Shown: positions 5,623 through 54,965 of the stretch, piece by piece | Position numbering within the stretch: position 1 is the first letter of the stretch | Layout of the letters: each line of letters starts with the position of its first letter | Assembly: GCA_002293685.1 (NCBI GenBank) | Contig: DBDS01000006.1 | Location: forward strand, 108,867 to 172,866 | DNA from: Patescibacteria group bacterium UBA926 | GTDB taxonomy: Bacteria; Patescibacteriota; Doudnabacteria; UBA920 | Length of the DNA: 64,000 nt | Direction of reading: 5' to 3' | Made by a program: the position numbers and the translations under genes | Notes under the pieces: generated by a model | Seen by the model: only the letters and a program-made list of their open reading frames with translations | What the model was told of the DNA's origin: nothing | The model's database searches: none

Positions 5623-5907
5623 TTGACAGCCCGTATAAAAAATTTATACCGCAGCCAAAGACCAAGAGAGCAAAGAACCATGGACAACGCAAATAAAGCA
5701 AGTTTGAGCCAACAAAGCCGTTTGCTAGAAATTCTACACAAGTATTGCCCTGAGTATTACGACTATAACGATAGCCGCATGTGGGATTTTACGGAAACAC
5801 TAACTAAGCGGCATGCCAGCGAACTCATTACCGATTATTACGACGGCAAGGTTGATAGGCTCAAAGCTGAATTTTATCAATTTATTAAAGAGAGAAAAGA
5901 ACAATGA
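5623..5907 (+). CDS. hypothetical early protein
   Basis: ORF start is TTG inside a TTGACA hexamer; ATG at 5680 (75 aa) is a plausible alternative start. First gene after attL. Confidence 0.4.
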   Translation: MTARIKNLYRSQRPREQRTMDNANKASLSQQSRLLEILHKYCPEYYDYNDSRMWDFTETLTKRHASELITDYYDGKVDRLKAEFYQFIKERKEQ

Positions 5908-16448: not shown

Positions 16449-18647
16449 ATGAACATTTTAGACAAAGCCCTTGGGGTTGTTGGACTGCTGCGCAAGAGCG
16501 CCAGCTACACTACCAACTTAACCACAGACGCGTTGAGCGTTTGGCTGAATGAAACCAAAGTTAGCGATAGCCGCGCTTTGGGTGTTTTTAATAACTGGGT
16601 TTATGCCTGTATCAAAGCTATTGCTGAGGAAATAGGGCGAACTCAGTTTATTTTAATGGAAGTAAAAAGCGACGGGGATAGCGCCAAGGACGAACACCCG
16701 CTGCTTGATTTATTAGCTGCCGTTAATACGCGACAAACTGGCTTTGAACTTTTATACACCATTGCCTGCCATTTAGAGGCTACTGGAAATGCCTATATTG
16801 TGCTTGACGGCGTGGAAAGCGAGGGGCAAACCCCTACCGCATTACACCTGCTGCCGCCTGACCGCGTGAAAATGAACATTGGCGCACTAGGCGTTGAGGA
16901 ATATGTATTTAGCAACGGCAACAGCACTAAGACATTTTACCCATACCAAATTTTACATATTAAATACCCAAACCCACGCGACCAGTACAAGGGTATTGGA
17001 ACCGTGCAGGCTATTGCCGACTGGATAGACGCAGACAACTACGCAACCGAATTTAACCGCAAATTCTTTAAGAACGGCGCCCACATTGGCGGTTTTCTTA
17101 AGAGTGATAGCGCATGGACTGCTGAACAACTGGAATACTTACAAAAATCTTTTGAGGGGATTTACAAAGGGGTTGATAACGCATATAAGACAGCAGCCTT
17201 GCCAAAGGGTACTGAGTTTACCCCTGCCCAACAGAGCCAAAAAGAAATGGACTTTACCGAGGGGCAGAGGCTTACACGCGACAAAATCCTTGCTGGGTTT
17301 AGAGTACCGCACATTGTGCTGGGGCTTGGCGCAGGCGAAAGCCTGAACCGCGCTACTGCTGACGCCGCACACTATGTATTTATGAGCCGCACAATCAAAC
17401 CGAAAATGCAGCTTATTTGTGATTACCTTAATGAGTTTTTGGTGCCATTGTTTGGCGAAAACATTTACTTAACTTTTGTAGACCCTGTACCCGATAACCG
17501 CGAGGGCTTAATGGCTGAAATGACGGCAGCAGTTGGCGGGCAACCTGTAATGAGCGTGAACGAGGCACGCGAACGATACTTTAACGCACCGCCAATACAG
17601 AACGGCGACGCGGTAATGACCAGCTTTAGCACCATACCGCTTGGAAAGCCTGAGGAAAAGGCGCACGCCGCAAAGCAGAAAACTGGCGGCGGTAAACCTA
17701 CCCACAGAAAGACCAAGCACGCAAGGGCTGCCACCAAGCGCAAGGAAATTGCAGAGGAACTGGCGGCAAAGACCGCAGAGGTGCTGGAAAAGCACAAAGA
17801 AAAACTGGCAAAGATTGCCACCAAGAGCATTACCGACTTAAGCCATGAGGAATACGACGCATTACATAAAAACTTTGTGGTACGGGTTGAGCCTTACGCT
17901 AAATTACTGGGTGCCAAAGTACGCCAGCATAATGACAATGTTTTTGCCGAAATAGAGGAAAGCCTAGCCGAGATTGTAAAAGCAGAAAAGCAGCCGCAGC
18001 TGTTTGACTTGGAAAAAGCCAATGAGGCACTTAAAAAACTGGCTGCGCCAGTGCTGAATGACTTGTTTAACAAAGAGGCTAATGCAGCGGCAAACCTGCT
18101 GGACGGCAAGGCAGTTAAAGAGATTACGCCCTTTAAAAAATCAGACGACGACGAACTGGACGACTACCTAACCCCTGAGGCACGCAAGGCGCTTGAAAAG
18201 TTTTACGGGCTATTTGCTGACCACTATAACAAGACCACCGCATTGCTACTTAAAGACACCATTGCTGAGGGGCTTGCAGAGGGGGAAAGCCTAAGCCAGC
18301 TGGTAGACCGAGTAAGCACTATTAGAGGTTTTAGCGACGAGGCGCGGGCTGAACTGGTAGCAAGGACTGAGAGCTTTAGAATAGCGAACTTTGCGACCCG
18401 CGAAAGCTGGAACCAAAGCGGGGTAGTAAAAAGCCTGAAATGGTATACAGCCGACAGCGAGGCATGCGCATTTTGCGACGAACTGGACGGCAAAATTGTG
18501 GACATTGAAGAAAACTTTTTAGAGCTAGGCGACACTTTGACAGCCAATAACGGGCAGAGCCTTGACATTAGTTACGCAGATGTAAGCGGTGGCGCACTAC
18601 ACCCAAACTGCCGTTGCTACATACGCCCTGAGGAAATAGAAGTTTAA
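16449..18647 (+). CDS. portal protein fused to MuF/SPP1-gp7-like head morphogenesis domain
   Basis: 732 aa. N-terminal ~400 aa portal-like. Basic K/A-rich linker. C-terminus carries the MuF motif HPNCRCY. Confidence 0.7.
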   Translation: MNILDKALGVVGLLRKSASYTTNLTTDALSVWLNETKVSDSRALGVFNNWVYACIKAIAEEIGRTQFILMEVKSDGDSAKDEHPLLDLLAAVNTRQTGFELLYTIACHLEATGNAYIVLDGVESEGQTPTALHLLPPDRVKMNIGALGVEEYVFSNGNSTKTFYPYQILHIKYPNPRDQYKGIGTVQAIADWIDADNYATEFNRKFFKNGAHIGGFLKSDSAWTAEQLEYLQKSFEGIYKGVDNAYKTAALPKGTEFTPAQQSQKEMDFTEGQRLTRDKILAGFRVPHIVLGLGAGESLNRATADAAHYVFMSRTIKPKMQLICDYLNEFLVPLFGENIYLTFVDPVPDNREGLMAEMTAAVGGQPVMSVNEARERYFNAPPIQNGDAVMTSFSTIPLGKPEEKAHAAKQKTGGGKPTHRKTKHARAATKRKEIAEELAAKTAEVLEKHKEKLAKIATKSITDLSHEEYDALHKNFVVRVEPYAKLLGAKVRQHNDNVFAEIEESLAEIVKAEKQPQLFDLEKANEALKKLAAPVLNDLFNKEANAAANLLDGKAVKEITPFKKSDDDELDDYLTPEARKALEKFYGLFADHYNKTTALLLKDTIAEGLAEGESLSQLVDRVSTIRGFSDEARAELVARTESFRIANFATRESWNQSGVVKSLKWYTADSEACAFCDELDGKIVDIEENFLELGDTLTANNGQSLDISYADVSGGALHPNCRCYIRPEEIEV

Positions 18648-29120: not shown

Positions 29121-30422
29121 ATGAAAAGCAGCGCAGTAGCGGCAGGCGATACAGCCACAGCCGCACAATACAATAATTTAAGACAAGACGCCAGCGCGTC
29201 AAGTTTTTTGTACCCGTCTGCACAATCTAGCCCAAATATGACAATAAAAATTGAGGCTGGACTAGGATTTATAGGACAGACGAAAGTTGAATATGCAGGG
29301 GGGAATAGCCCAACAATGACAGCGCCAACTGTTAACCCACGCATTGACTTGGTTTATATTGATAGTGCTGGAACTATTACAATCGCAAATGGGGCAGAGG
29401 CAGCCAGCCCAAGCGCACCAGCACTTGTAAATAATACTATACCAATTTGCTATATCTACCACCGAACAACAGCGACAGGTATTTATGATACTGATACTGC
29501 TGGGCAATCTTATATCTATAAAGATTTGCGAGCTTTTCTTACGAACCCAGCAGTTGTGCAGGGTGGTAGTAATATGCAAATTTTTGAAGCCGTTGGGGCT
29601 GGAACTTGGAACAAGCCTACAGGTACAGGTGCAAATAGTGTTGTTATTGTTGAAGTTTGGGGTAGCGGTGGCGGCGGTGGTAATGGTGCTAACGCTACTG
29701 GCGGCGGTGGCGGCGGTGGCGGTGCATATTTTAAGAAAGTTTTTAAAGCGTCTGAACTAGGCTCAACAGAAAGTATCTCAGTAGCGCAAGGTGGCGGCGG
29801 TGGCTCAACTAACGGGGCAGCAGGAAACAACGGCGCCAGCTCTACTTTTGGTAGTGGTGCAACCCTAGTTACAGGATATGGCGGCGGGCGTGGACGAGAG
29901 GGCGTTGCAGACGGGCAAGGCGGCGGCGGTGGCATGTATGGTGCTGGCGAGGGCGGCGGCGTCGGTGGTAGTGGTATTGGTGGTAATGGTGGTTTAGGGG
30001 GCGCACCCAATATACCAAATAATGCAACCTTTACCCACCCGTCTGGTTATGGATTAGGTGCTAACGCTGGCAATGGTATGAACGCAGGGAATAGCACTAC
30101 TGGTGGTGGTGGCGGTGCAGATAGCACACAAACCCCAGGCAGTAGCGTGTTTGGTGGTGGTGGTGGCGGTGCAAGCGGGAATGGTGGGGTTAGTGTTTAC
30201 GGTGGTGGTGGTGGTGGCGGTGCAGGTGCCACAACAGTATCAACTTGTTTAGGCGGTGTAAGCCCCTTTGGTGGGAAAGGTGGTAATGCAGGTAATGGAA
30301 CAATAGCAGCAGAGGACGGACAACAGCCAGGCGGTGGTGGCGGCGGCTCAAGGGGTAATTCCGCTGGTAGCAGAGCTGGCAATGGCGGTAATGGGAAAGT
30401 AGTAGTAACAACTATATTCTAA
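29121..30422 (+). CDS. glycine-rich putative tail fibre / receptor-binding protein
   Basis: 433 aa. N-terminal 190 aa ordinary. The remainder is poly-Gly blocks (GGGGG runs) interspersed with N/S/T/A. Confidence 0.5.
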   Translation: MKSSAVAAGDTATAAQYNNLRQDASASSFLYPSAQSSPNMTIKIEAGLGFIGQTKVEYAGGNSPTMTAPTVNPRIDLVYIDSAGTITIANGAEAASPSAPALVNNTIPICYIYHRTTATGIYDTDTAGQSYIYKDLRAFLTNPAVVQGGSNMQIFEAVGAGTWNKPTGTGANSVVIVEVWGSGGGGGNGANATGGGGGGGGAYFKKVFKASELGSTESISVAQGGGGGSTNGAAGNNGASSTFGSGATLVTGYGGGRGREGVADGQGGGGGMYGAGEGGGVGGSGIGGNGGLGGAPNIPNNATFTHPSGYGLGANAGNGMNAGNSTTGGGGGADSTQTPGSSVFGGGGGGASGNGGVSVYGGGGGGGAGATTVSTCLGGVSPFGGKGGNAGNGTIAAEDGQQPGGGGGGSRGNSAGSRAGNGGNGKVVVTTIF

Positions 30423-30426
30423 AAAA

Positions 30427-31107
30427 ATGAAAAAAATAATTTACACACTTAATATAAATAACTACGCCCCCGAATTAAGGGCGTTAACGCGCCCGCACTT
30501 AGAGTTTTACGCTAAAAGGATTGGCGCCGAAATTATAGATATTACAGAGCGCAAATACCCACACATGCCTGTGGTTTATGAAAAGCTGCAAATCTATGAT
30601 TTAGCACAAAAATATAGAGCAGATTGGAATATATACATTGACAGCGACTGCTTAATACACCCTGAAACAATAGATTTTACTAACTTTTTAGATAAAAGCA
30701 CTGTTTTCCAAGTAGGTAGCGATATGGCGGCTATTAGGTGGCGTTACGATAAATATTTTTTGCGCGACGGTAGAAATATTGGAACATGTAATTGGTTTAC
30801 CATTTTTAGCGACTGGTGCATTGATTTATATAAACCGCTTGAAGATATGGAACTAGACGAGGTAATGCAATATATGTATCCAACCGTTATAGAAAGAACC
30901 ACAGTAGTAGATACTGCCCATTTGATTGACGATTTTGTGTTATCAAGGAATGTAGCGAGGTATGGGTTGAAGTACCAAAATTTAAAAGAATTGTTGGAAA
31001 AAATTGGCTTGCCAAATGCAAACTTTTTTTGGCACGAATACCTAATTACCACCCAAGAAAAAGTGGCAAAGGCTAAGGAAGTCATAAAACTATGGAAAAT
31101 TAACTAA
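30427..31107 (+). CDS. DxD-motif glycosyltransferase-like protein (AT-rich moron)
   Basis: 226 aa. YDLAQKYRADWNIYIDSDCLI resembles the sugar-binding DxD region of GT32/GT8-type transferases. G+C clearly below flanking phage DNA. Confidence 0.4.
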   Translation: MKKIIYTLNINNYAPELRALTRPHLEFYAKRIGAEIIDITERKYPHMPVVYEKLQIYDLAQKYRADWNIYIDSDCLIHPETIDFTNFLDKSTVFQVGSDMAAIRWRYDKYFLRDGRNIGTCNWFTIFSDWCIDLYKPLEDMELDEVMQYMYPTVIERTTVVDTAHLIDDFVLSRNVARYGLKYQNLKELLEKIGLPNANFFWHEYLITTQEKVAKAKEVIKLWKIN

Positions 31108-31114
31108 ATTAAGC

Positions 31115-31534
31115 ATGGCAGAAGATACACAACAAGACCGACGCACCCCTGAGGTGCCACCATACCCACATGCGGTACAAAGCGACCATGACGCTATTGT
31201 AACCTTAGTTGCCGAAACACGGGCGTTGAGCAGGCAAATAAGCGAAATGAAAAATGTAGAGCTTAAAGACATTAGGGCTGACATTAAAGAGGTAAAGGAC
31301 AATGTGGCTGACCGAGTGCGGGATTTGGAACAAGAGAAAATAGACAAGGCAGAGGTGTTGAAAATGCAGCAGGACGCTGAGAAAATACACACCGACCACG
31401 AAACCCGTATTAGGGTTAATGAGCAATTTAGAGAAAATTTTAAAGGCAAGTACGCCATTTTGGCGGTGCTTGGCAGTGCGGTTATTTCTGTTGTTGTATC
31501 TTTAGTGATTTTAGCGGCTAACAAATTAACCTGA
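31115..31534 (+). CDS. XhlA-like lysis-associated membrane protein (coiled coil + C-terminal TM)
   Basis: 139 aa. Charged coiled-coil N-terminus. Single C-terminal TM YAILAVLGSAVISVVVSLVILAA. Immediately upstream of the endolysin. Confidence 0.35.
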   Translation: MAEDTQQDRRTPEVPPYPHAVQSDHDAIVTLVAETRALSRQISEMKNVELKDIRADIKEVKDNVADRVRDLEQEKIDKAEVLKMQQDAEKIHTDHETRIRVNEQFRENFKGKYAILAVLGSAVISVVVSLVILAANKLT

Positions 31535-31538
31535 AAAC

Positions 31539-32990
31539 ATGGATAACGAACTATACCCGTTGGGTGCGGTTAAAGACCCTGTAGACGAACGCGACATACT
31601 CTATGCTACCGTGGCTGAACCAGTGGCTAGTTTGCCGCGCAAGTTTAGCCTGCGCGATAAGCAAAGCCCTGTGGCACGGCAAAAGTACGGCAGCTGTGTT
31701 GGATTTGCCAATAAGAGCGCGTGCGAATACCACCGTAAACGACTGCTTAATATAGACGAGGTTTTAAGTGGCAGATTTACATATGGCAGGTGCAAAGAAT
31801 TAGACGGCAGACCAGACGACGAGGGAACCTACCCACGCTTAGCACTGAGCGTTGCATTTGGCAAAGGCTTGGTGCTAGATAAGGATTTTTCTAACTCTAA
31901 ACCGCCCAGCCCCACCCACGCAGACTACATAAAGGCACCAGCTGACGAAATAACAGAGGGTGCCATACAAAGGGCAATGGTGGGTGGGTTTGTGCGGGTG
32001 CGCAACCTACAGGAACTTAAACAGGCATTGGTTGAACACGGCACGGTGCTTATTACCGTAAGTGTGTACACGCAGTTTGACAATCCCGAAAACGACGGTT
32101 TTATACCATGGGCAGCACAGCGAGCCAGCAGAGGCAGCCACGCAATTGTTTGCACTGGCTATGACGACGATTTTAGAGGCATTGGGGCAATTGAAGTTAA
32201 GAACAACTGGGGCGAGAACTGGGGCGACGACGGCTACGGCTGGATTGCTTACGACTACGAGGGCGAGGGGGCAACCCCATGCTGGGATATGTGGGTTATT
32301 GTTGGCGAGGATAAAGTTAATGCGCAGCTAACCAGTGGGGCGCCTATAAATTTGGTTTACCCAGTAGATACGCCAACCCCGTTTGTTACCCAACCTTTTG
32401 GCGCCCGCCCTGAGTATTACAAAAAATACGGCATGGCAGGACATAACGGCATTGACTTTAGAACCCGCGACACTAATAAACGGATATTAGCCTGCGACGA
32501 CGGCGAAGTTATCTTTGCTGGCAATGACGGCAGTTATGGGCAATCAGTAAGGATTAAGCACAGCTGGGGCATGAGCATTTACGCACATAACAGCCAAATA
32601 GTAATACCGCTTTATGAAAATGACGGCAGCAGCCCTAAGAGAGTAAAGCGTGGGCAACATATTGCTATAGCAGGGGCTAGCGGCGACACTGGCAACCCGC
32701 CCGCAGAACATTGCCACTTTGGGATTAGAATTAACGGCGTTAAGAACCCAGCCTACTTTGACTGGGTAGACCCAGCGCCATATTTAAAGAAAGGCGAACG
32801 CATGATTGGATACAAGCACCCAAGCAACAGCACAGTATACCTGCCTATTGGCGGTGGTACTTTAGTGCCTATTACCGACTGGGCTACTTTTTTAGCTTTG
32901 GGCGGCAGCGAAAGCAGTATTGTACAGCTCAGTGCTGAACAGTTTGCAAAGTATACCGTGGCAAACGGCGCGGTATTTACCAAGGCTTAA
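31539..32990 (+). CDS. endolysin with papain-like C1 cysteine peptidase + M23 metallopeptidase domains
   Basis: C1 triad contexts GSCVGFA / GSHAIVCTGYDD / NNWGENWGDDGY. M23 motifs HNGIDF and EHCHFGI. C-terminal ~90 aa possible binding domain. Confidence 0.65.
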   Translation: MDNELYPLGAVKDPVDERDILYATVAEPVASLPRKFSLRDKQSPVARQKYGSCVGFANKSACEYHRKRLLNIDEVLSGRFTYGRCKELDGRPDDEGTYPRLALSVAFGKGLVLDKDFSNSKPPSPTHADYIKAPADEITEGAIQRAMVGGFVRVRNLQELKQALVEHGTVLITVSVYTQFDNPENDGFIPWAAQRASRGSHAIVCTGYDDDFRGIGAIEVKNNWGENWGDDGYGWIAYDYEGEGATPCWDMWVIVGEDKVNAQLTSGAPINLVYPVDTPTPFVTQPFGARPEYYKKYGMAGHNGIDFRTRDTNKRILACDDGEVIFAGNDGSYGQSVRIKHSWGMSIYAHNSQIVIPLYENDGSSPKRVKRGQHIAIAGASGDTGNPPAEHCHFGIRINGVKNPAYFDWVDPAPYLKKGERMIGYKHPSNSTVYLPIGGGTLVPITDWATFLALGGSESSIVQLSAEQFAKYTVANGAVFTKA

Positions 32991-33068
32991 CCGATTAGAT
33001 TATTAACTACCGAAAGTTTAGGGGGTACGGGGGGTATGTATGGCTTGAGGTAGGCAAAGGGTAAATGT

Positions 33069-33539
33069 TTGAAATTTATTTTAACATTTATTGCCCTAGT
33101 GGTGCTGGCAACCCCAATAAGCACCCATACAGCGACAGCTGACAGCAGTTACTTAACCTATGACCAGCTTAAGGCTTATACCGAAAAGCAGGCAGAGCAG
33201 CAATGGAGTGCGCAATTAGTTGCTTATGCCCAAACTTTGGTAGGCAAAAGGACTGGCACCTGCGTTTTATCACTGCGCAACCACTTTGGTGTGCCGCGGG
33301 CTGATGTGCAGGGCTTGGCTAAGAGTACAAAAATTAACTCAAAGACAGGCAAGGTAGGGGCGGTAATTGTATTCCGCAATTTATCAAAATATGGGCATGT
33401 GGGCTACATAATTGCAGACCATGGCGACACATGGCTGTATTTCCACAGCAACATAGATTGGCGGGGTACAGGCAGAATAGACAAAATAGCAAAGACAGAC
33501 AGCCGCATTAGCGGTTACAGACTAATTAACTACAAATAA
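33069..33539 (+). CDS. secreted CHAP-domain peptidase/amidase
   Basis: TTG start. Signal peptide (KFILTFIALVVLATPISTHTATA). Cys in GTCVLSL and His in YGHVGYII fit CHAP. Confidence 0.5.
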   Translation: MKFILTFIALVVLATPISTHTATADSSYLTYDQLKAYTEKQAEQQWSAQLVAYAQTLVGKRTGTCVLSLRNHFGVPRADVQGLAKSTKINSKTGKVGAVIVFRNLSKYGHVGYIIADHGDTWLYFHSNIDWRGTGRIDKIAKTDSRISGYRLINYK

Positions 33540-33540
33540 A

Positions 33541-33783
33541 ATGAAACTAGCAGGAAGTGAAAAGTTTGAGATTGACTGGCTAGGCGTCGCAAAGACCGCC
33601 CGCTTGTTTATTGTTACCGTTGGCGGTGCAATTCTGACCGTCGCGCTTGAACAGGCGCTTAAGGAATTTGTGCCAAGCGTAAACCTTGGGGCATACGAAT
33701 GGCTGCGCCCAGCAATCTTTATTGGTTTTAGCACCGCACTGGAATTTGTGCGCCGCTTTGTAACCGATTACAGCAACCGTTAA
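33541..33783 (+). CDS. 2-TM holin-like membrane protein
   Basis: 80 aa with two hydrophobic helices, within the lysis cassette. Terminator follows. Confidence 0.4.
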   Translation: MKLAGSEKFEIDWLGVAKTARLFIVTVGGAILTVALEQALKEFVPSVNLGAYEWLRPAIFIGFSTALEFVRRFVTDYSNR

Positions 33784-33788
33784 ATGAG

Positions 33789-33813
33789 AGGCGCAAGAGT
33801 ATTGCGCCTTTTG
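33789..33813 (+). terminator. rho-independent terminator
   Basis: AGGCGCAA-GAGTA-TTGCGCCT followed by TTTTG. Confidence 0.55.
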
Positions 33814-34523: not shown

Positions 34524-35432
34524 ATGAAATTTAGCGAGGCAATCAAAGAATTTAGCGCATGGAAAGGCTTTAGCGTGAAAAATAATACCGTAAGTGGCTA
34601 TACTGGCGATTTACGGCTGCTTGCTTTATATTTGCGCGACCCCGAAATTACCGCAATTAGTTGGGGCGACATACAGCAATACCAAACCGATTGCATAAAA
34701 CTGGGCTGGGATAGCAATACTTTTGTGCGCAAGTTTATAGCTTACCGCAAGTTTTTTGCTTACTGGCACAGCAAAGACCCAAAAGTGCTTGACCCCGAAT
34801 GGATACCAGTAATGTATGCCGAAATGAAACAGCCGCGGGTTATAGACGAGGCAAACTATAAAAAGCTACTTGGGATTTTAAGCAAAGACAGCAAAGACCC
34901 GCGGCACCATAGGAACCGCGCCATGATACAGCTACTATGGGATACTGGCGCCCGCAACGGCGAACTGCTGAGTTTGAACCTAGACGACATTGACTTAAAT
35001 AAAATGTGTGCCGTGATACGCACCGAAAAGGCAAAGTTTAGACGGCAGTACAGGCAAATTTTTTGGACAAAGGAAACCAACGAGAGTATAGGCAATTGGT
35101 TGTCATTGCGCGAAAAGTTAAACAGCAAGTATTGGCTGATTAAAGACAAGGACGCGCTATTTATTTCTGTTACGGGTGTAAAGGCTGGCACTAGGCTAAA
35201 GGTTGGCGGGTTTGCGGAAATGCTGAGGCGGTACTGCGAAAAGGCGGGTATTGACCACTATAACCCACACAGCTTTAGGCACCACATGGGGCATGACATT
35301 ATCAAGAAAGGCGGCAGCAATTCTGATGTAAGCAACATACTAGGGCATAGCAGCTTGCAGAGCAGTTTTATTTACACAATGTTAAATGACAAAGAACTGG
35401 AAAAGAGATACAGGCAATTTAAAGGTCGTTAA
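34524..35432 (+). CDS. int: tyrosine integrase / site-specific recombinase
   Basis: C-terminal catalytic region HSFRHHMGH...ILGHSSLQSSFIYT (R..H..R..Y). N-terminal SAM-like domain. Adjacent to attR. Confidence 0.85.
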   Translation: MKFSEAIKEFSAWKGFSVKNNTVSGYTGDLRLLALYLRDPEITAISWGDIQQYQTDCIKLGWDSNTFVRKFIAYRKFFAYWHSKDPKVLDPEWIPVMYAEMKQPRVIDEANYKKLLGILSKDSKDPRHHRNRAMIQLLWDTGARNGELLSLNLDDIDLNKMCAVIRTEKAKFRRQYRQIFWTKETNESIGNWLSLREKLNSKYWLIKDKDALFISVTGVKAGTRLKVGGFAEMLRRYCEKAGIDHYNPHSFRHHMGHDIIKKGGSNSDVSNILGHSSLQSSFIYTMLNDKELEKRYRQFKGR

Positions 35433-35490
35433 TTGCCAACAGATAGTAAAGTGTTATAATTAAGGCAAATAAGCAATTAAGGCATAAACC

Positions 35491-36015
35491 ATGGACAACC
35501 AAACACAGCCAACCAAAAAGGCTATTTACAAGCGCTGGTGGTTTTGGGTGTTGGCAGTTGTTGTGCTGTTTGGCGTCATTGGCGCATTTGACGGCGACGG
35601 CAGCAAGACCGAACCTACTACCCAAGCTGAGAGCAGCACCACACAGGCTTACGCATTTGATGTGCCAAGTTTAATTGGCAAAAATGTAGACGAGGTTAAA
35701 GCAGTATTGGGCAACCCTACAAGCGATACCGAACCTACGCAGGCACAGTTAGCCAATGGGCTGACCAAGGAATGGGAAAAGACATTTACCAAAGACGGCG
35801 TTAGCATGCTAGTAACATACAGACTAGCAGACCGCAGCGTGGTAGACTTTTTCATTTCTACCAATGACCCAAGCGGTATGACAAAAGACACCGCTGCGCT
35901 TAAAAAACTGGGCAACATTACCCTAAGCGACAGCAGGTATAAAATTGACTTTGTAGAGGCGCTGAAAGACAAGAGCCAATACACTGGCATTAAAATTACC
36001 CCTACTGGACTATAA
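35491..36015 (+). CDS. membrane-anchored extracytoplasmic protein (lysogenic conversion / exclusion candidate)
   Basis: N-terminal TM WWFWVLAVVVLFGVIGAF, then a Thr/Ser-rich linker and a ~120-aa domain. Sits between int and attR. Confidence 0.45.
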   Translation: MDNQTQPTKKAIYKRWWFWVLAVVVLFGVIGAFDGDGSKTEPTTQAESSTTQAYAFDVPSLIGKNVDEVKAVLGNPTSDTEPTQAQLANGLTKEWEKTFTKDGVSMLVTYRLADRSVVDFFISTNDPSGMTKDTAALKKLGNITLSDSRYKIDFVEALKDKSQYTGIKITPTGL

Positions 36016-44542: not shown

Positions 44543-46309
44543 ATGAATACATCTAATCAAATTAATTTCTTCGCTAAAACCAATTTCCGCAACCAGCAAG
44601 TTCCTTTTGGTATAAAACCAGATGACCGACGCCGTCACATGTATGTGATAGGTAAAACTGGTATGGGAAAAACAACCATGATGGAAAACATGGTTATTCA
44701 GGATATTCGCAACGGAAATGGAGTCTGTTTTATTGATCCGCACGGAGATTCAATTCAAAAAATATTGGATTATGTTCCCCAAAGTCGGATTAATGATGTT
44801 GTGTATTTCAATCCAGCCGATTTAGATCACCCAATTGCATTTAATATTTTGGAATCAGTTGAATCACGATACAAGCATTTAGTTGCTTCTGGCTTAATGG
44901 GTGTATTCACCAAAATTTGGGCTAGTATGTGGTCAAGTCGTATGGAGTACATTTTAAATAACACTATTTTGGCGCTTTTGGATAGCCCTGGCAATACAAT
45001 GCTTGGAATCGTGCGTATGTATGTGGATAAAAAATATCGTAAGAAAATCGTGGATAATATTAAAGATCCAATGGTAAAAGCTTTTTGGATTGAAGAATTT
45101 GCCAATTACGCAGAAAAATATCGAACGGAAGCTGTAGCTCCTATCCAAAACAAAGTTGGTCAGTTCTTATCCTCTTCTATTATCCGAAATATTGTTGGTC
45201 AACCAAAGTCTACAATAGATTTACGCGACATTATGGATAACAACAAAATTCTATTATTGGATTTATCAAAAGGTAAAGTTGGTGAAGATAACTCCTCTTT
45301 GCTTGGTGCGATGATAATTACTAAACTCCAACTCGCCGCATTATCCCGTGTGGATATTCCAGAACAAGAACGTAAAGACTTTTATTTATACGTCGATGAG
45401 TTCCAAAATTTTGTTACCGACAGTTTTGCAACAATTCTATCCGAAGCCCGTAAATATCGATTAAATTTGACTATGGGCCATCAATATATTGGCCAACTCA
45501 CGCCAGAAAATAACACCAAAGTTCGCGACGCCGTTTTTGGTAACGTGGGAACTATGGTTGTATTCAGAGTTGGTGCGGCTGATGCCGAGTTCTTAGAGAC
45601 CGAATTTGAACCAGCATTCACCCCAAACGACATTGTTAATCTTCCAAAATATCACGTTGTGTTGAGACTTATGATTAACGGTGTGGCTAGCGATCCGTTT
45701 ACTGCAGTGACAATTCCTGTTAATGAGGAGTGGTTTGTAGGTGACGGGGAGAAGGTCATTAAAGTATCTCGGGAACGTTACGCTAAACCACGTGATCAGG
45801 TTGAAGATAAAATTCAACGTTGGATGGGTGTAGATTTTCATGAAGCTTCGGCTGAGGCGCATAGCAATGAAACAGGTGAAAGTTCGGTAGCCCGTGCTAA
45901 ATTTGATCAATCAGTACCTCATAAAGAATCTCTGTCTATCCCTGCCAAGCAAACATCGACACCACAAATCGCAAAACCCAAAATTCAAATTGCCTCCGAT
46001 TATTTAGATCGTATCAGCAAACCTCAAGGAGATAACCGAACGAAGCAAAACAACAAGCCAACGGCGCAAGAGTCTCATAATAAACTAAATAAACAGCAGA
46101 AACCAAATCAAAAACCTAAGCCGATTAATGATATTTGGACTAAAGCCCAAGATTTGCAACAATCTAAAACCCAGGCTTTGGCTGAAAATTTTTCTAGTGC
46201 AATCGAAACAGCTTTTTTGCCAGAAAAGCCACTAAATAAACCTAAACAACAACTTAAGCCGGACGATGATAGTGTGATACTAAAACCAGGGGAGATTTAT
46301 GAATTATAA
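44543..46309 (+). CDS. VirD4/TraG/TraD-like (DUF87-type) P-loop ATPase with disordered Q/K/P-rich tail
   Basis: Walker A GKTGMGKTT, Walker B FYLYVDEFQNF, ARKYRLNLTMGHQ arginine-finger region. C-terminal ~130 aa low complexity. Confidence 0.55.
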   Translation: MNTSNQINFFAKTNFRNQQVPFGIKPDDRRRHMYVIGKTGMGKTTMMENMVIQDIRNGNGVCFIDPHGDSIQKILDYVPQSRINDVVYFNPADLDHPIAFNILESVESRYKHLVASGLMGVFTKIWASMWSSRMEYILNNTILALLDSPGNTMLGIVRMYVDKKYRKKIVDNIKDPMVKAFWIEEFANYAEKYRTEAVAPIQNKVGQFLSSSIIRNIVGQPKSTIDLRDIMDNNKILLLDLSKGKVGEDNSSLLGAMIITKLQLAALSRVDIPEQERKDFYLYVDEFQNFVTDSFATILSEARKYRLNLTMGHQYIGQLTPENNTKVRDAVFGNVGTMVVFRVGAADAEFLETEFEPAFTPNDIVNLPKYHVVLRLMINGVASDPFTAVTIPVNEEWFVGDGEKVIKVSRERYAKPRDQVEDKIQRWMGVDFHEASAEAHSNETGESSVARAKFDQSVPHKESLSIPAKQTSTPQIAKPKIQIASDYLDRISKPQGDNRTKQNNKPTAQESHNKLNKQQKPNQKPKPINDIWTKAQDLQQSKTQALAENFSSAIETAFLPEKPLNKPKQQLKPDDDSVILKPGEIYEL

Positions 46310-52817: not shown

Positions 52818-54965
52818 ATGAAAAAACGTTCACTTAAAATTTTATTACATCACAATATTGAAGATTCGGTTGATGTAGCTGGTCAAAAGTCTAAGCACAA
52901 ATTCTGGAAAAGGATGATTTTTGGATTACTTAACTTTTTCACAAAGTTTAGCTATCTTATCGGTTTAACAATTTTTGGGATTATATCATTTCCACTAACT
53001 ATAAAGAAATTGGTTTTTTCCAAAGACGAACTTTTTATAATCCAAAAAAAGAAATTAGCAATTTTTGCTCTAATATTATTATTTGCAGCAACTCCAGTGT
53101 TCATGCTTTCAGTAGCTTCTGAAGGATGGAAATTAGGTGGTCGAGTTCTTGGGGTCAGTGATGAAGCTCTTTCAGACATCACGCTAGCACGACAAGCAAT
53201 TTCAAATGAAGACTATGAACTAGCTCAAGTAAGTTTTGCTGGGGCTTTAGAAAAGCTTGTTTTAGTCCAAAACGAGCTCAACTCATCTAGTACTAGCATT
53301 AGAGCAGCTAGTAGTTTTGCACCAGCTAGTTTAAACACAGATAATTTTTTACGCTCCGCAACACTTTTAACTGAAAGTGGGATATTGGCATCTCGTCTGA
53401 TGGCTGAGGTATCAAATTTAACTTTCACTCCTCAAGGAATTAGCTCAAAAAACCAGGATACAAAAGTAGCGATTTCAAAACTAACAGAGACTAGTCTTGA
53501 ATTGAATTCAAAATTACACGAAGCTGAACGATTACTTAAACCAATTAATACAAGTTTATTCCCAGCCGAGTATCAACTTGCAATTAATACTACAAAGGAT
53601 TTATTGTCCGAAACTATAATTCAAAGCTCACAGTTGTCAGATATGTTAGTACTACTAAACGATTTTACTATCGGGACAAAGTCTTTCTTGGTAGTTTTGC
53701 AAAATAATAATGAACTTAGAGCGACTGGTGGTTTTATTGGTACAATTGCCCAGGGTAGAATTTCTGATGGTGTTATAAACAATCTAGATATCAGAAGCGT
53801 TTACGATTTAGATGGACAGATTTTAGATTGGATTAAACCACCAAGTCCACTGCAAGCAGTGAATAGCAGAATGTTTTTAAGGGACAGTAATTGGTTTGCT
53901 AGTTTTCCAGAATCAGCAGAGCGTTTGTCTATAATGTACGAAAAGAGTGGGGGAGAAACTCCGGATTTAATCATGGCATTTACCCCTGAATTATTTTTAG
54001 ATTTTCTTAGGTTGACTGGTCCGATTGAGTTACCAACTTACAATGTAATAATCACTGCTGAAAATTTTATTGAACAAACCCAAACAACAACATCAATTTC
54101 ATACGATAAAAACTTAAATCAACCTAAACAATTATTGGCAGATTTATACCCAGCCTTAATGCAAAGACTTGGCGAACTAACAAAGAACGATCCTTTGTTG
54201 TTTATTTCAATCCTTCAAAAAAGTCTGTCTGATAAGAATATTTTGCTTTATTCACGAAACAGTTCTTTACAATCAAGATTTGAGCAATACAACTGGGCTG
54301 GAAAAGTCTTGGAATCAGATGGAGACTACTTACAAATAATTAGTTCAAATCTCTCTGGGAGTAAAACTGATAGGGATCTAAATCGATCAGCAATACTATC
54401 AACTACAATAGACGAAGATGGAAATGTGTTGAATCAACTAACCTATACAATCAATAATCCACTTCCTGCTGTGGAAGGATTAACCAATCGAAGTTGGATT
54501 AGAATCATGGTTCCTCAAAATAGCAAACTCTTAGGTTCAAGTGGATTTACTAATTTCACTCCAGAAAATTTGCCTACTGACAAGCTATATAATGAAAGTC
54601 CGGCGATTAGTGCTTGGGAGTCTGAACTAAAATTTGATCAGTCAAACCAGATATATATTGGCAAGGAAGCTGGAAAGCAATATTTTGCGAATTGGCTAGA
54701 AGTTCCTGGTGGAGAAACTAGAACTATATCAGTTACGTATCAACTACCAAAAAAGCTGTCCGGAAAAATTAGTAATTACCGTTTGCTTTGGCAAAAGCAA
54801 AGTGGCATGCTCCCATTTCCAGTCGAACAGAGATTTAAATTTGAATCTCGTATCCCAAAATGGAGTAATTTTGAATTGCGTAGCTCAAATGATTCATCCT
54901 ATCAATGGCTCTGGCAGTCACAACTTACTACTGATAAATTTACTGGTGTAGTGCTTACAAAATAA
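52818..54965 (+). CDS. DUF4012-domain envelope protein
   Basis: N-terminal TM. Central NNELRATGGFIGTIAQGRI block typical of DUF4012. 715 aa. Confidence 0.55.
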   Translation: MKKRSLKILLHHNIEDSVDVAGQKSKHKFWKRMIFGLLNFFTKFSYLIGLTIFGIISFPLTIKKLVFSKDELFIIQKKKLAIFALILLFAATPVFMLSVASEGWKLGGRVLGVSDEALSDITLARQAISNEDYELAQVSFAGALEKLVLVQNELNSSSTSIRAASSFAPASLNTDNFLRSATLLTESGILASRLMAEVSNLTFTPQGISSKNQDTKVAISKLTETSLELNSKLHEAERLLKPINTSLFPAEYQLAINTTKDLLSETIIQSSQLSDMLVLLNDFTIGTKSFLVVLQNNNELRATGGFIGTIAQGRISDGVINNLDIRSVYDLDGQILDWIKPPSPLQAVNSRMFLRDSNWFASFPESAERLSIMYEKSGGETPDLIMAFTPELFLDFLRLTGPIELPTYNVIITAENFIEQTQTTTSISYDKNLNQPKQLLADLYPALMQRLGELTKNDPLLFISILQKSLSDKNILLYSRNSSLQSRFEQYNWAGKVLESDGDYLQIISSNLSGSKTDRDLNRSAILSTTIDEDGNVLNQLTYTINNPLPAVEGLTNRSWIRIMVPQNSKLLGSSGFTNFTPENLPTDKLYNESPAISAWESELKFDQSNQIYIGKEAGKQYFANWLEVPGGETRTISVTYQLPKKLSGKISNYRLLWQKQSGMLPFPVEQRFKFESRIPKWSNFELRSSNDSSYQWLWQSQLTTDKFTGVVLTK

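Follow-up and report, generated by a model that had tools for sequence, protein, structure and literature searches.

Multi-catalytic endolysins encoded by phages with Gram-positive hosts are cytoplasmic, holin-dependent enzymes in which an N-terminal clan CA cysteine peptidase is joined to another catalytic domain and to a C-terminal module of small size; their genes are found where the late operon ends, next to those of small membrane proteins. Staphylococcal LysK, for example, consists of CHAP, Amidase and SH3b domains. To our knowledge, the cysteine peptidases of endolysins have so far been limited to CHAP, NlpC/P60, Amidase_5 and C39-like domains. The nearest precedent for the protein described here is mycobacteriophage Lysin A, for which a C39-like “papain family” N5 domain and M23 domains have been reported (Payne & Hatfull, PMC3314691). 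A 2023 survey of the papain family recorded the acquisition of xylellain-type C1A genes by Myoviridae and Siphoviridae without giving a function, a lysis context or fusions (PMC10380794). Here, we analyzed 64,000 nucleotides of a contig from Patescibacteria group bacterium UBA926, a member of the candidate phyla radiation (CPR) (assembly GCA_002293685.1, contig DBDS01000006.1, positions 108,867 to 172,866 of the forward strand). This whole stretch is called the window below, and all coordinates refer to it. Four adjacent open reading frames (ORFs) in a prophage within the window, ORF1 to ORF4, have the appearance of a lysis cassette. The product of ORF2 shares the layout of the multi-catalytic endolysins, and its gene shares their surroundings. 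In contrast to proteins of the LysK and Lysin A type, however, its cysteine peptidase is a C1 domain proper (PF00112, with Gln, Cys, His, Asn and Trp) and not a CHAP, NlpC/P60, Amidase_5 or C39-like domain. The fusion of this xylellain-type C1 catalytic family to M23 in the predicted endolysin of a phage of a CPR bacterium is new, in that we found no description of it among characterized endolysins.

The four ORFs fill positions 31115 to 33783 on the + strand, with coordinates identical to those given in a first-pass annotation of the raw sequence, and are separated by gaps of 4 nt (ORF1-ORF2), 78 nt (ORF2-ORF3) and 1 nt (ORF3-ORF4). They stand toward the end of the prophage gene order (Sak4-like, replication O-like, TerL, portal, protease, major capsid, tape measure, tail fibers, cassette, HNH, tyrosine integrase). 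The genes upstream of the cassette, encoding a Sak4-like annealing protein, an O-like initiator, the large terminase, the portal, the prohead protease, the major capsid protein, a minor tail protein, the tape measure and tail-fiber proteins, are all on the + strand as well. Downstream, a 72-amino-acid (aa) HNH-like ORF precedes a tyrosine integrase gene (34524-35432). Three nucleotides past the ORF4 stop begins a GC-rich hairpin followed by a T-rich run (RNA fold, −19.8 kcal/mol; z = −3.1 versus shuffles); a simple terminator scan did not list it, and it is the likely end of the late transcript. The features of the cassette are as follows.

31115-31534, + strand: ORF1, 139 aa, tail-anchored membrane protein
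31539-32990, + strand: ORF2, 483 aa, predicted endolysin composed of C1, M23 and a C-terminal module
31635-32300, + strand: Peptidase_C1 domain, xylellain-type (PF00112), ORF2 residues ~33-254
32346-32783, + strand: Peptidase_M23 zinc metallopeptidase domain (PF01551), ORF2 residues ~270-415
32796-32987, + strand: C-terminal module of ~65 aa, putative cell-wall-binding domain, ORF2 residues ~420-483
33069-33539, + strand: ORF3, 156 aa, TTG start, predicted secreted CHAP-family cysteine peptidase/amidase
33069-33140, + strand: predicted signal peptide of ORF3, residues 1-24, with cleavage between A-T-A and D
33541-33783, + strand: ORF4, 80 aa, small membrane protein, putative holin
33786-33812, + strand: GC-rich hairpin, then T-rich run

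We consider it probable that ORF1 to ORF4 are a lysis cassette that closes the late operon of the prophage, that is, a standard lysis module with an unusual endolysin. This degree of confidence applies to the explanation as a whole, including the events proposed below, and it agrees with the first-pass annotation in reading the locus as a lysis cassette.

The C1 domain of ORF2 was examined at the level of profile, alignment and fold. The motifs by which the first-pass annotation had recognized a papain-family C1 domain and an M23 domain (YGSCVGFA, GSHAIVCTGYDD, KNNWGENWGDDGY, HNGIDF and EHCHFGI) are all present in ORF2. Pfam Peptidase_C1 (PF00112) scored 39.7 bits (cutoff, 20.7) over residues 33 to 240, covering profile positions 2 to 206 of 220, and among the PHROGs the “peptidase” family phrog_16701 covers the N-terminal half of the protein. 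The best sequence match in the PDB was xylellain of Xylella fastidiosa (3OIS; E = 3e-18, residues 9 to 254). Across an alignment of 21 C1-M23 proteins, 34 to 62% identical to ORF2, Gln48, Cys53, His201 and Trp224 are invariant and Asn222 is at least 90% conserved. The catalytic Gln (oxyanion hole), Cys, His, Asn and Trp thus stand in papain order, with a Gln-Cys spacing one residue shorter than that of xylellain. The segment that precedes the domain (residues 1 to 32) is conserved too, with the motif G-A-x-x-D-P-x-D-x-R-D; in xylellain, such a segment may cover the active-site cleft. An AlphaFold2 (AF2) model built on the same 21 proteins (mean predicted local distance difference test score [pLDDT], 88.9) again found xylellain as its top Foldseek match in the PDB (3OIS; E = 1.7e-17, TM-score 0.80). 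Further matches of the C1 domain were Der p 1, Der f 1, cathepsins K, S and B, and Cwp84, with TM-scores of ~0.8 for Der p 1 and cathepsin S. We also considered that the profile match might be a mis-scored CHAP or NlpC/P60 domain; this was rejected because the top Foldseek matches are all C1A peptidases, the fold search giving only such structures at a TM-score of ~0.8. As modeled, the domain is a genuine two-lobe papain-family domain with an intact predicted active site, and neither the domain search nor the conservation of the catalytic residues spoke against the assignment. Xylellain, the best match in both sequence and structure, has in common with it the catalytic residues and an N-terminal G-x-x-P/S-x-x-D-x-R-D segment. 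Xylellain is, however, a stand-alone cellular enzyme, whereas the C1 domain of ORF2 is fused to M23 within a lysis cassette.

A linker of ~30 residues (255 to 285) joins C1 to the M23 domain, the assignment of which is equally firm: PF01551 scored 60 bits (cutoff, 28.7) over residues 301 to 401, and all zinc and catalytic positions, namely, His302/Asp306 (HxxxD), His350 and His391/His393 (HxH), are invariant in the 21 proteins. Matches to this half of ORF2 included Pgp3, LytM, ShyA and zoocin A in the PDB by sequence, endolysin or peptidase families in PHROGs, and NCBIfam M23 models scoring below their cutoffs. The C-terminal module gave no Pfam match even at E ≤ 10 and none in PDB or NCBIfam. 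It was modeled as a small beta/alpha unit (pLDDT ~70 to 85), and in homologues this position is occupied either by a module of that type or by a ~45-aa repeat in one to two copies. Its location, where endolysins usually carry a wall-binding domain, suggests a putative role of this kind. By hydropathy, ORF2 has no hydrophobic segment and no signal peptide. Judged by sequence, ORF2 is predicted to be a cytoplasmic three-module endolysin.

To establish how widely this architecture occurs, we searched protein, viral and genome collections. Among 5.8 billion proteins, 24 clusters align over at least 80% of ORF2; 21 have precomputed C1 and M23 matches, and 3 have M23 only. One of these comes from a Candidatus Dojkabacteria genome and bears at NCBI only the name “peptidoglycan DD-metalloendopeptidase family protein.” Four full-length C1-M23 genes are present in IMG/VR, where the viral contigs that carry them measure 28 to 38 kb. 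A scan of one genome per GTDB species with a pattern derived from the C1-M23 alignment gave no match, and the sole result of a single-protein scan of the same scope was a fragment of 1 kb with 88% identity that had been binned to a Saccharimonadales metagenome-assembled genome. No C1+M23 protein was found in 50,697 GenBank phage records, and neither those records nor the literature yielded a characterized endolysin with a C1 catalytic domain. In the literature on C1/papain endolysins and CPR phage lysis genes, the C1-M23 architecture was not met, and the xylellain-type C1A genes of tailed phages were the sole relevant mention. The family is masked by generic names such as “MepM/NlpD” and “DD-metalloendopeptidase.” Because its members are already in public databases and C1A genes in tailed phages have already been noted, the novelty lies in functional context and architecture and not in the existence of the sequences.

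The C1 domain also occurs with partners other than M23. Domains 28 to 41% identical to that of ORF2 are fused to Cu_amine_oxidN1 (PF07833), PG_binding_1 (PF01471) or Peptidase_M15_3 (PF08291), and in these the Gln, Cys, His and Asn are retained in every sequence (30/30). The 30 lysin-type C1 modules open with a conserved G-x-x-x-S/D-P-x-D-x-R-D segment, common to xylellain; the module is N-terminal in 27 of them, the other three having longer leaders. The C1+M15_3 gene is located among small ORFs of an SU10-like phage, between SU10-type portal and adaptor genes (locus L007). The gene for C1+PG_binding_1 comes after large tail genes and is followed by genes for an 83-aa protein with two transmembrane segments and an SLT-like protein, and C1+Cu_amine_oxidN1, found in two unrelated contigs, is followed by Amidase_2, small transmembrane proteins and an integrase. 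Several uncharacterized phage proteins with lysin-type C1 architectures are present in BFVD. We conclude that the lysin-type C1 domain is a coherent, swappable N-terminal module in uncultured phages. In Thermoanaerobacterium phage THSA-485A (locus L010, CP003186.1 4912-6666), a stand-alone “peptidase C1A papain” gene directly follows the gene of an endolysin with GH25 and PG-binding domains; as the phage of a cultured host, THSA-485A would offer a more tractable system for the substrates of lysin-type C1. This phage also encodes, ~1.1 kb upstream of the GH25 gene, an 84-aa coiled-coil protein with a C-terminal transmembrane segment.

To determine whether the surroundings of ORF2 are conserved, we compared five homologous loci and translated the neighboring genes (L001, from a Dojkabacteria contig, and L003, L004, L005 and L006). 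In all five, the C1-M23 gene follows tail or fiber genes, is directly preceded by a gene for a 100- to 175-aa protein with one transmembrane segment and a coiled-coil-type region, and is directly followed by a gene for a 60- to 107-aa protein with one or two transmembrane segments that is unrelated to ORF4. The neighbors are mostly unrelated in sequence from locus to locus, as is usual for holins and their partners. In L003 and L004, a signal-peptide CHAP-like gene comes after the small membrane protein gene.

ORF3 was considered in the same way. Its N terminus, MK-FILTFIALVVLA-TPISTHTATA followed by D, reads by inspection as a Sec signal, with n, h and c regions and with A-x-A at −3/−1, and the hydrophobic segment spans residues 1 to 21. 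A signal-like N terminus is kept in 30 homologues, although its sequence varies. An AAGGG Shine-Dalgarno-like box is located 8 nt upstream of the TTG start. Public gene calls differ on this gene, giving a 156-aa or a 146-aa form (start at 33069 versus 33099), and only the long TTG form includes the signal peptide in full; the long form is also favored by homologues that start with ATG. The Pfam CHAP match of ORF3 itself is partial and falls short of the cutoff (22.6 versus 26 bits), whereas its 32%-identical syntenic orthologue in L004 scores 28.9, and 10 of 31 homologues have a precomputed PF05257 match. Cys65, His110 and Asn128 are invariant in 30 homologues. The AF2 model of ORF3 has a core pLDDT of ~95, with most of residues 1 to 26 below 50, and its top Foldseek matches are PlyGRCS, PlyPy, MepS and LysIME-EF1 (probability, 1.0; E from 2.6e-4). 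By model and motif, ORF3 is thus a CHAP-family enzyme with a Sec-type signal and is predicted to be secreted, which bears out the separate, signal-peptide-bearing CHAP enzyme that the first-pass annotation had proposed. The catalytic core superposes on those of the CHAP endolysins PlyGRCS and PlyPy. In contrast to these, ORF3 is a minimal single domain that has no binding domain and coexists with a signal-less endolysin in the same cassette. Endolysins exported by Sec are known, Lys44 of Oenococcus phage fOg44 being one example.

The two membrane proteins bracket these enzymes. In ORF1, hydropathy places a transmembrane segment near the C terminus (~111 to 135, with four residues after it), preceded by ~110 aa of coiled-coil type that draw only weak coiled-coil-type Pfam matches. 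Its family of 111 relatives (75 to 170 aa) has the same layout, with the motifs DHD, HxDHExRxR and KGKYAIL, the last leading into the transmembrane segment, and a 54%-identical orthologue is encoded directly upstream of the C1-M23 gene in L003. A tblastn search of GenBank phages with ORF1 gave no match. The His/Asp/Glu pattern conserved in the family is unusual for a plain coiled coil. ORF1 had been called XhlA-like, and we tested the family against the Pfam model and against a reference alignment of seven genuine XhlA proteins of Bacillus and Geobacillus phages, the genes of which each stand directly upstream of one for a holin or endolysin. Pfam XhlA (PF10779) gave no match for ORF1 or its five positional equivalents even at E ≤ 10, and matched 1 of 50 ORF1 relatives (E = 1e-3). 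As a control, the genuine XhlA protein phIS3501 gp45 scored 37.7 against a cutoff of 34.7 in the same test. The NTTWIxR motif that enters the transmembrane segment in all seven aligned XhlA proteins is replaced by KGKYAIL in the ORF1 family. In an hhalign comparison, the probability was 86% (E = 4.7e-6), and the 41 aligned columns consist mostly of coiled coil of low complexity and transmembrane segment; cross-scores between the two hidden Markov models (9 to 16 bits) were insignificant. Because the Pfam search was negative, the hhalign match short and the cross-scores insignificant, and with NTTWIxR absent, we treat ORF1 as an analogue of XhlA and not as a member of its family. What stands of the XhlA comparison is the coiled coil, the C-terminal transmembrane segment and the place as first gene of the lysis module; homology is unproven. 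In XhlA-XhlB-XlyA modules (PBSX, phIS3501, Wbeta-like), a ~75- to 140-aa protein with a coiled coil and a C-terminal transmembrane segment is likewise encoded by the first lysis gene after the tail genes, although XhlA genes precede the holin gene, whereas the ORF1 gene directly precedes that of the endolysin. The positional equivalents of ORF1 in four of the five homologous cassettes have their transmembrane segment at the N terminus, followed by basic residues; by the positive-inside rule, the coiled coil is probably cytoplasmic in both layouts. ORF1 is described here as a putative holin partner or lysis regulator.

ORF4 has one strong transmembrane segment (~22 to 40), a short, weak hydrophobic stretch (~57 to 70) and a charged C terminus (RRFVTDYSNR), and the same layout is found in two other clusters, its only relatives in the collection of 5.8 billion proteins. 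ORF4 matches no holin family and has no match in Pfam, PHROGs or NCBIfam. The earlier description of ORF4 as a holin-like protein with two transmembrane segments holds for the first segment and for the position in the cassette; the second segment is marginal. From its size, its position and the conserved slot that it occupies, we infer that ORF4 is a putative holin.

Together, these observations are most economically read as a holin-endolysin cassette of the Gram-positive type, and they suggest the following course of events. The four genes would be transcribed late, as the tail end of the structural operon. Lacking an export signal, ORF2 would build up in folded form in the cytoplasm, while ORF3 would be exported in advance through host Sec and sit in the wall; host SecA and SecDF are encoded within the window. 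At a set time, ORF4, probably together with tail-anchored ORF1, would permeabilize or depolarize the membrane, and this opening would release ORF2 to the wall. There, its C-terminal module would dock the enzyme, M23 would cut peptide cross-links of the peptidoglycan, and C1 would cut a second target of peptide nature. The simplest candidate for this target is an L-amino-acid bond in the stem peptide or cross-bridge, and the alternative is a wall-associated protein. The secreted CHAP enzyme, ORF3, would add a third cut. No glycosidase or amidase was found in the cassette or among the neighboring and larger prophage ORFs screened, and as far as this screen extends the predicted hydrolases are all directed at peptide bonds.

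Three peptidase domains are indeed present, as the first-pass annotation stated in crediting the cassette with three peptidoglycan peptidase activities; that C1 is one of these activities is unproven. The further proposal that three peptidases point to an atypical cross-bridge in the host wall found no support, since multi-domain endolysins are routine and the window is silent on the host peptidoglycan type, with no host wall-synthesis gene besides murB. Wall specificity cannot be read from the sequence either, because the M23 relatives span Pgp3 (trimming), ShyA (a DD-endopeptidase) and LytM and zoocin A (glycyl-glycine endopeptidases). Several points weigh against the proposed scheme. C1 enzymes are protein endopeptidases that cleave ordinary protein backbones, and we know of no papain-family C1 enzyme that cleaves peptidoglycan, so that the C1 substrate is its weakest link. 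Neither ORF1 nor ORF4 matches a holin family, and the second transmembrane segment of ORF4 is marginal. With a 78-nt gap in front of it and a TTG start, ORF3 could be regulated separately. M23 domains also occur in virion-associated lysins, and the best M23 matches in GenBank phages include tail proteins of Clostridium podophages. Finally, the lysin families concerned are known from sequences and models alone.

An alternative is that the C1 domain is a protease acting on a protein layer of the envelope, such as an S-layer or wall-anchored proteins, so that the phage would clear the coat with C1 and the murein with M23 and CHAP. The fold and catalytic apparatus of C1 are those of bona fide protein endopeptidases, and the host genus of THSA-485A carries an S-layer. 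Wherever enough flanking sequence is available, C1 is fused to, or within ~2 kb of, M23, M15_3, Amidase_2, GH25 or SLT, as would fit an accessory enzyme with a non-murein target; yet multi-domain endolysins with, for example, CHAP plus amidase are also “never alone,” and fusion of C1 to PG_binding_1 and to endolysin-type wall-binding modules fits a murein enzyme equally well. A structural neighbor of the domain, Cwp84, is the C1A protease that processes the S-layer precursor SlpA of Clostridioides difficile (PMC4414356). Cwp84 resembles the C1 domain of ORF2 in being a bacterial C1A protease of the cell envelope (Foldseek E ~ 8e-12), but it is a secreted housekeeping enzyme of the host with a propeptide, a lectin-like domain and CWB2 repeats, and the C1 domain of ORF2 is no closer to it than to the cathepsins, which makes the likeness a functional analogy and not a family assignment. 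Many SLH-domain proteins have been reported for a related patescibacterium (10.1101/2024.03.08.584096), whereas no host S-layer gene was identified in the window and the literature gave no precedent for a phage S-layer protease. None of the pairing with murein hydrolases, the likeness to Cwp84 and the SLH report discriminates between a murein and a protein target. On balance, we regard a protein target as unlikely, though well worth keeping in view. A shade more doubtful is the broader idea that lysin-type C1 constitutes a new class of lysis enzymes in phages, namely, proteases dedicated to the S-layer or to wall proteins, which phages of S-layered monoderms (CPR bacteria and Thermoanaerobacterium-like Firmicutes) would join by fusion, or combine as a separate protein, with a conventional peptidoglycan hydrolase.

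Other readings give one of the enzymes a different task. ORF3 could be a secreted effector carried by the prophage and released from the lysogen, either remodeling its own wall or attacking a partner or competitor of the episymbiotic host. In keeping with this, ORF3 is preceded by a 78-nt spacer of its own and carries a Sec signal, and a CHAP gene is present in only three of six cassettes (the window plus the five loci), in varying order relative to the small membrane protein gene. No convincing promoter match was found upstream of ORF3, however, its stop codon 1 nt before ORF4 points to translational coupling within the cassette, and secreted endolysins are a known lysis strategy, all of which makes an effector role improbable. 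ORF2, for its part, could be a virion-associated entry lysin carried on the tail, with ORF3 as the true endolysin. ORF2 is encoded just downstream of the tail-fiber genes, M23 is frequent in tail lysins (the PHROG and GenBank M23 matches include tape-measure, tail and minor head proteins), and the C1-M15_3 gene of L007 sits between portal and adaptor genes of the SU10 type. Against this stand the absence of any structural or tail domain in ORF2, whose catalytic domains and small C-terminal module have the Gram-positive endolysin layout; the membrane proteins that bracket it in every homologous locus; the unrelated 226-aa gene and ORF1 that separate it from the tail fibers; and the lysin-type C1 proteins encoded beside integrases or Amidase_2 at the end of late regions. 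Because of the architecture of ORF2 and its membrane-protein neighbors, we think a virion role very unlikely. Equally hard to sustain, and if anything less probable, is a C1 domain that serves as a built-in maturation protease, cleaving the lysin itself or ORF3 instead of the wall, in the manner of prolysostaphin processing by cysteine proteases. M23 enzymes such as LytM and lysostaphin are synthesized in a latent form that proteolysis must activate, and in ORF2 a ~30-residue linker joins C1 to M23. That linker is not conspicuously conserved as a cleavage site, however, and because the C1 module also occurs with PG_binding_1 or Cu_amine_oxidN1 only, where there is no second catalytic domain to activate, and as a stand-alone gene in THSA-485A, self-processing is highly improbable. 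A holin-endolysin cassette of the Gram-positive type remains our preferred reading.

The element that carries the cassette is a temperate siphovirus-like prophage of ~30 kb, which occupies ~5.7 to 35.5 kb of the window within the genome of a Patescibacteria (CPR) host. GC content is 0.44 to 0.50 from ~6 to 36 kb versus 0.35 to 0.39 in the flanks, which encode MurB, SecA, SecDF, LepA, an M1 aminopeptidase and a DUF4012 protein. Prophage GC thus exceeds that of the host flanks by ~10 percentage points, a wide gap for a prophage that resides in a CPR bacterium with a small genome. The 13-bp sequence AACCATGGACAAC forms an exact direct repeat at 5676-5688 and 35487-35499 (chance expectation, ~0.03). 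The left copy is near the GC shift, and the right copy lies 55 nt past the integrase stop and overlaps the ATG of a host ORF (35491-36015); tentatively, the repeat is a candidate att core bounding a prophage of ~29.8 kb. Between the integrase gene and the right copy is an 11/12 match to a sigma-70-like promoter (TTGCCA-16-TATAAT, 35433-35460), which could drive the displaced host gene. The exact ORF2 protein is present on 17 contigs, the longest of 263,779 bp, and near-identical cluster members are present on contigs of 31 to 36 kb; from these contigs, the phage may exist both integrated and as a phage-sized contig.

Several neighboring genes are of interest in their own right. Between the tail-fiber genes and the cassette, the 226-aa ORF (30427-31107, + strand) has no match in Pfam, PHROGs, NCBIfam or PDB. 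It is conserved, as a 228-aa version, on a related phage contig of 31 kb, together with relatives of ORF2 to ORF4. A D-S-D motif is present in the ORF, which, speculatively, could be glycosyltransferase-like. The tail-fiber-like protein encoded at 29121-30422 (+ strand) combines a conserved N-terminal part with a C-terminal half that is extremely rich in glycine, and the strand antisense to it yields long spurious proline-rich ORFs (e.g., 29516-30010). Counterparts of this protein are encoded a little upstream of the C1-M23 gene in L003 (4348-5439) and L004 (2804-4444). The C-terminal third of the 732-aa portal (16449-18647, + strand) also matches head-morphogenesis and minor-head (MuF-like) PHROG families, which suggests a portal-MuF fusion. 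Past the prophage, a TrwB/TraG-like coupling ATPase and a DUF4012 protein (44543-46309 and 52818-54965, + strand) are encoded among large host ORFs without Pfam assignment; these ORFs may belong to the envelope or DNA-uptake machinery typical of CPR genomes.

By itself, the cassette settles no long-standing question. It does provide a concrete first picture of how a phage may lyse a Patescibacteria/CPR cell, the envelope of which is poorly known, and a possible use would be the selective lysis of CPR cells. Were the substrate of C1 a protein, lysis of such cells would need a third envelope-breaching activity, analogous to spanins or LysB for other layers. If C1 is active in lysis, the papain family C1, in its xylellain-type form, would join the endolysin repertoire.

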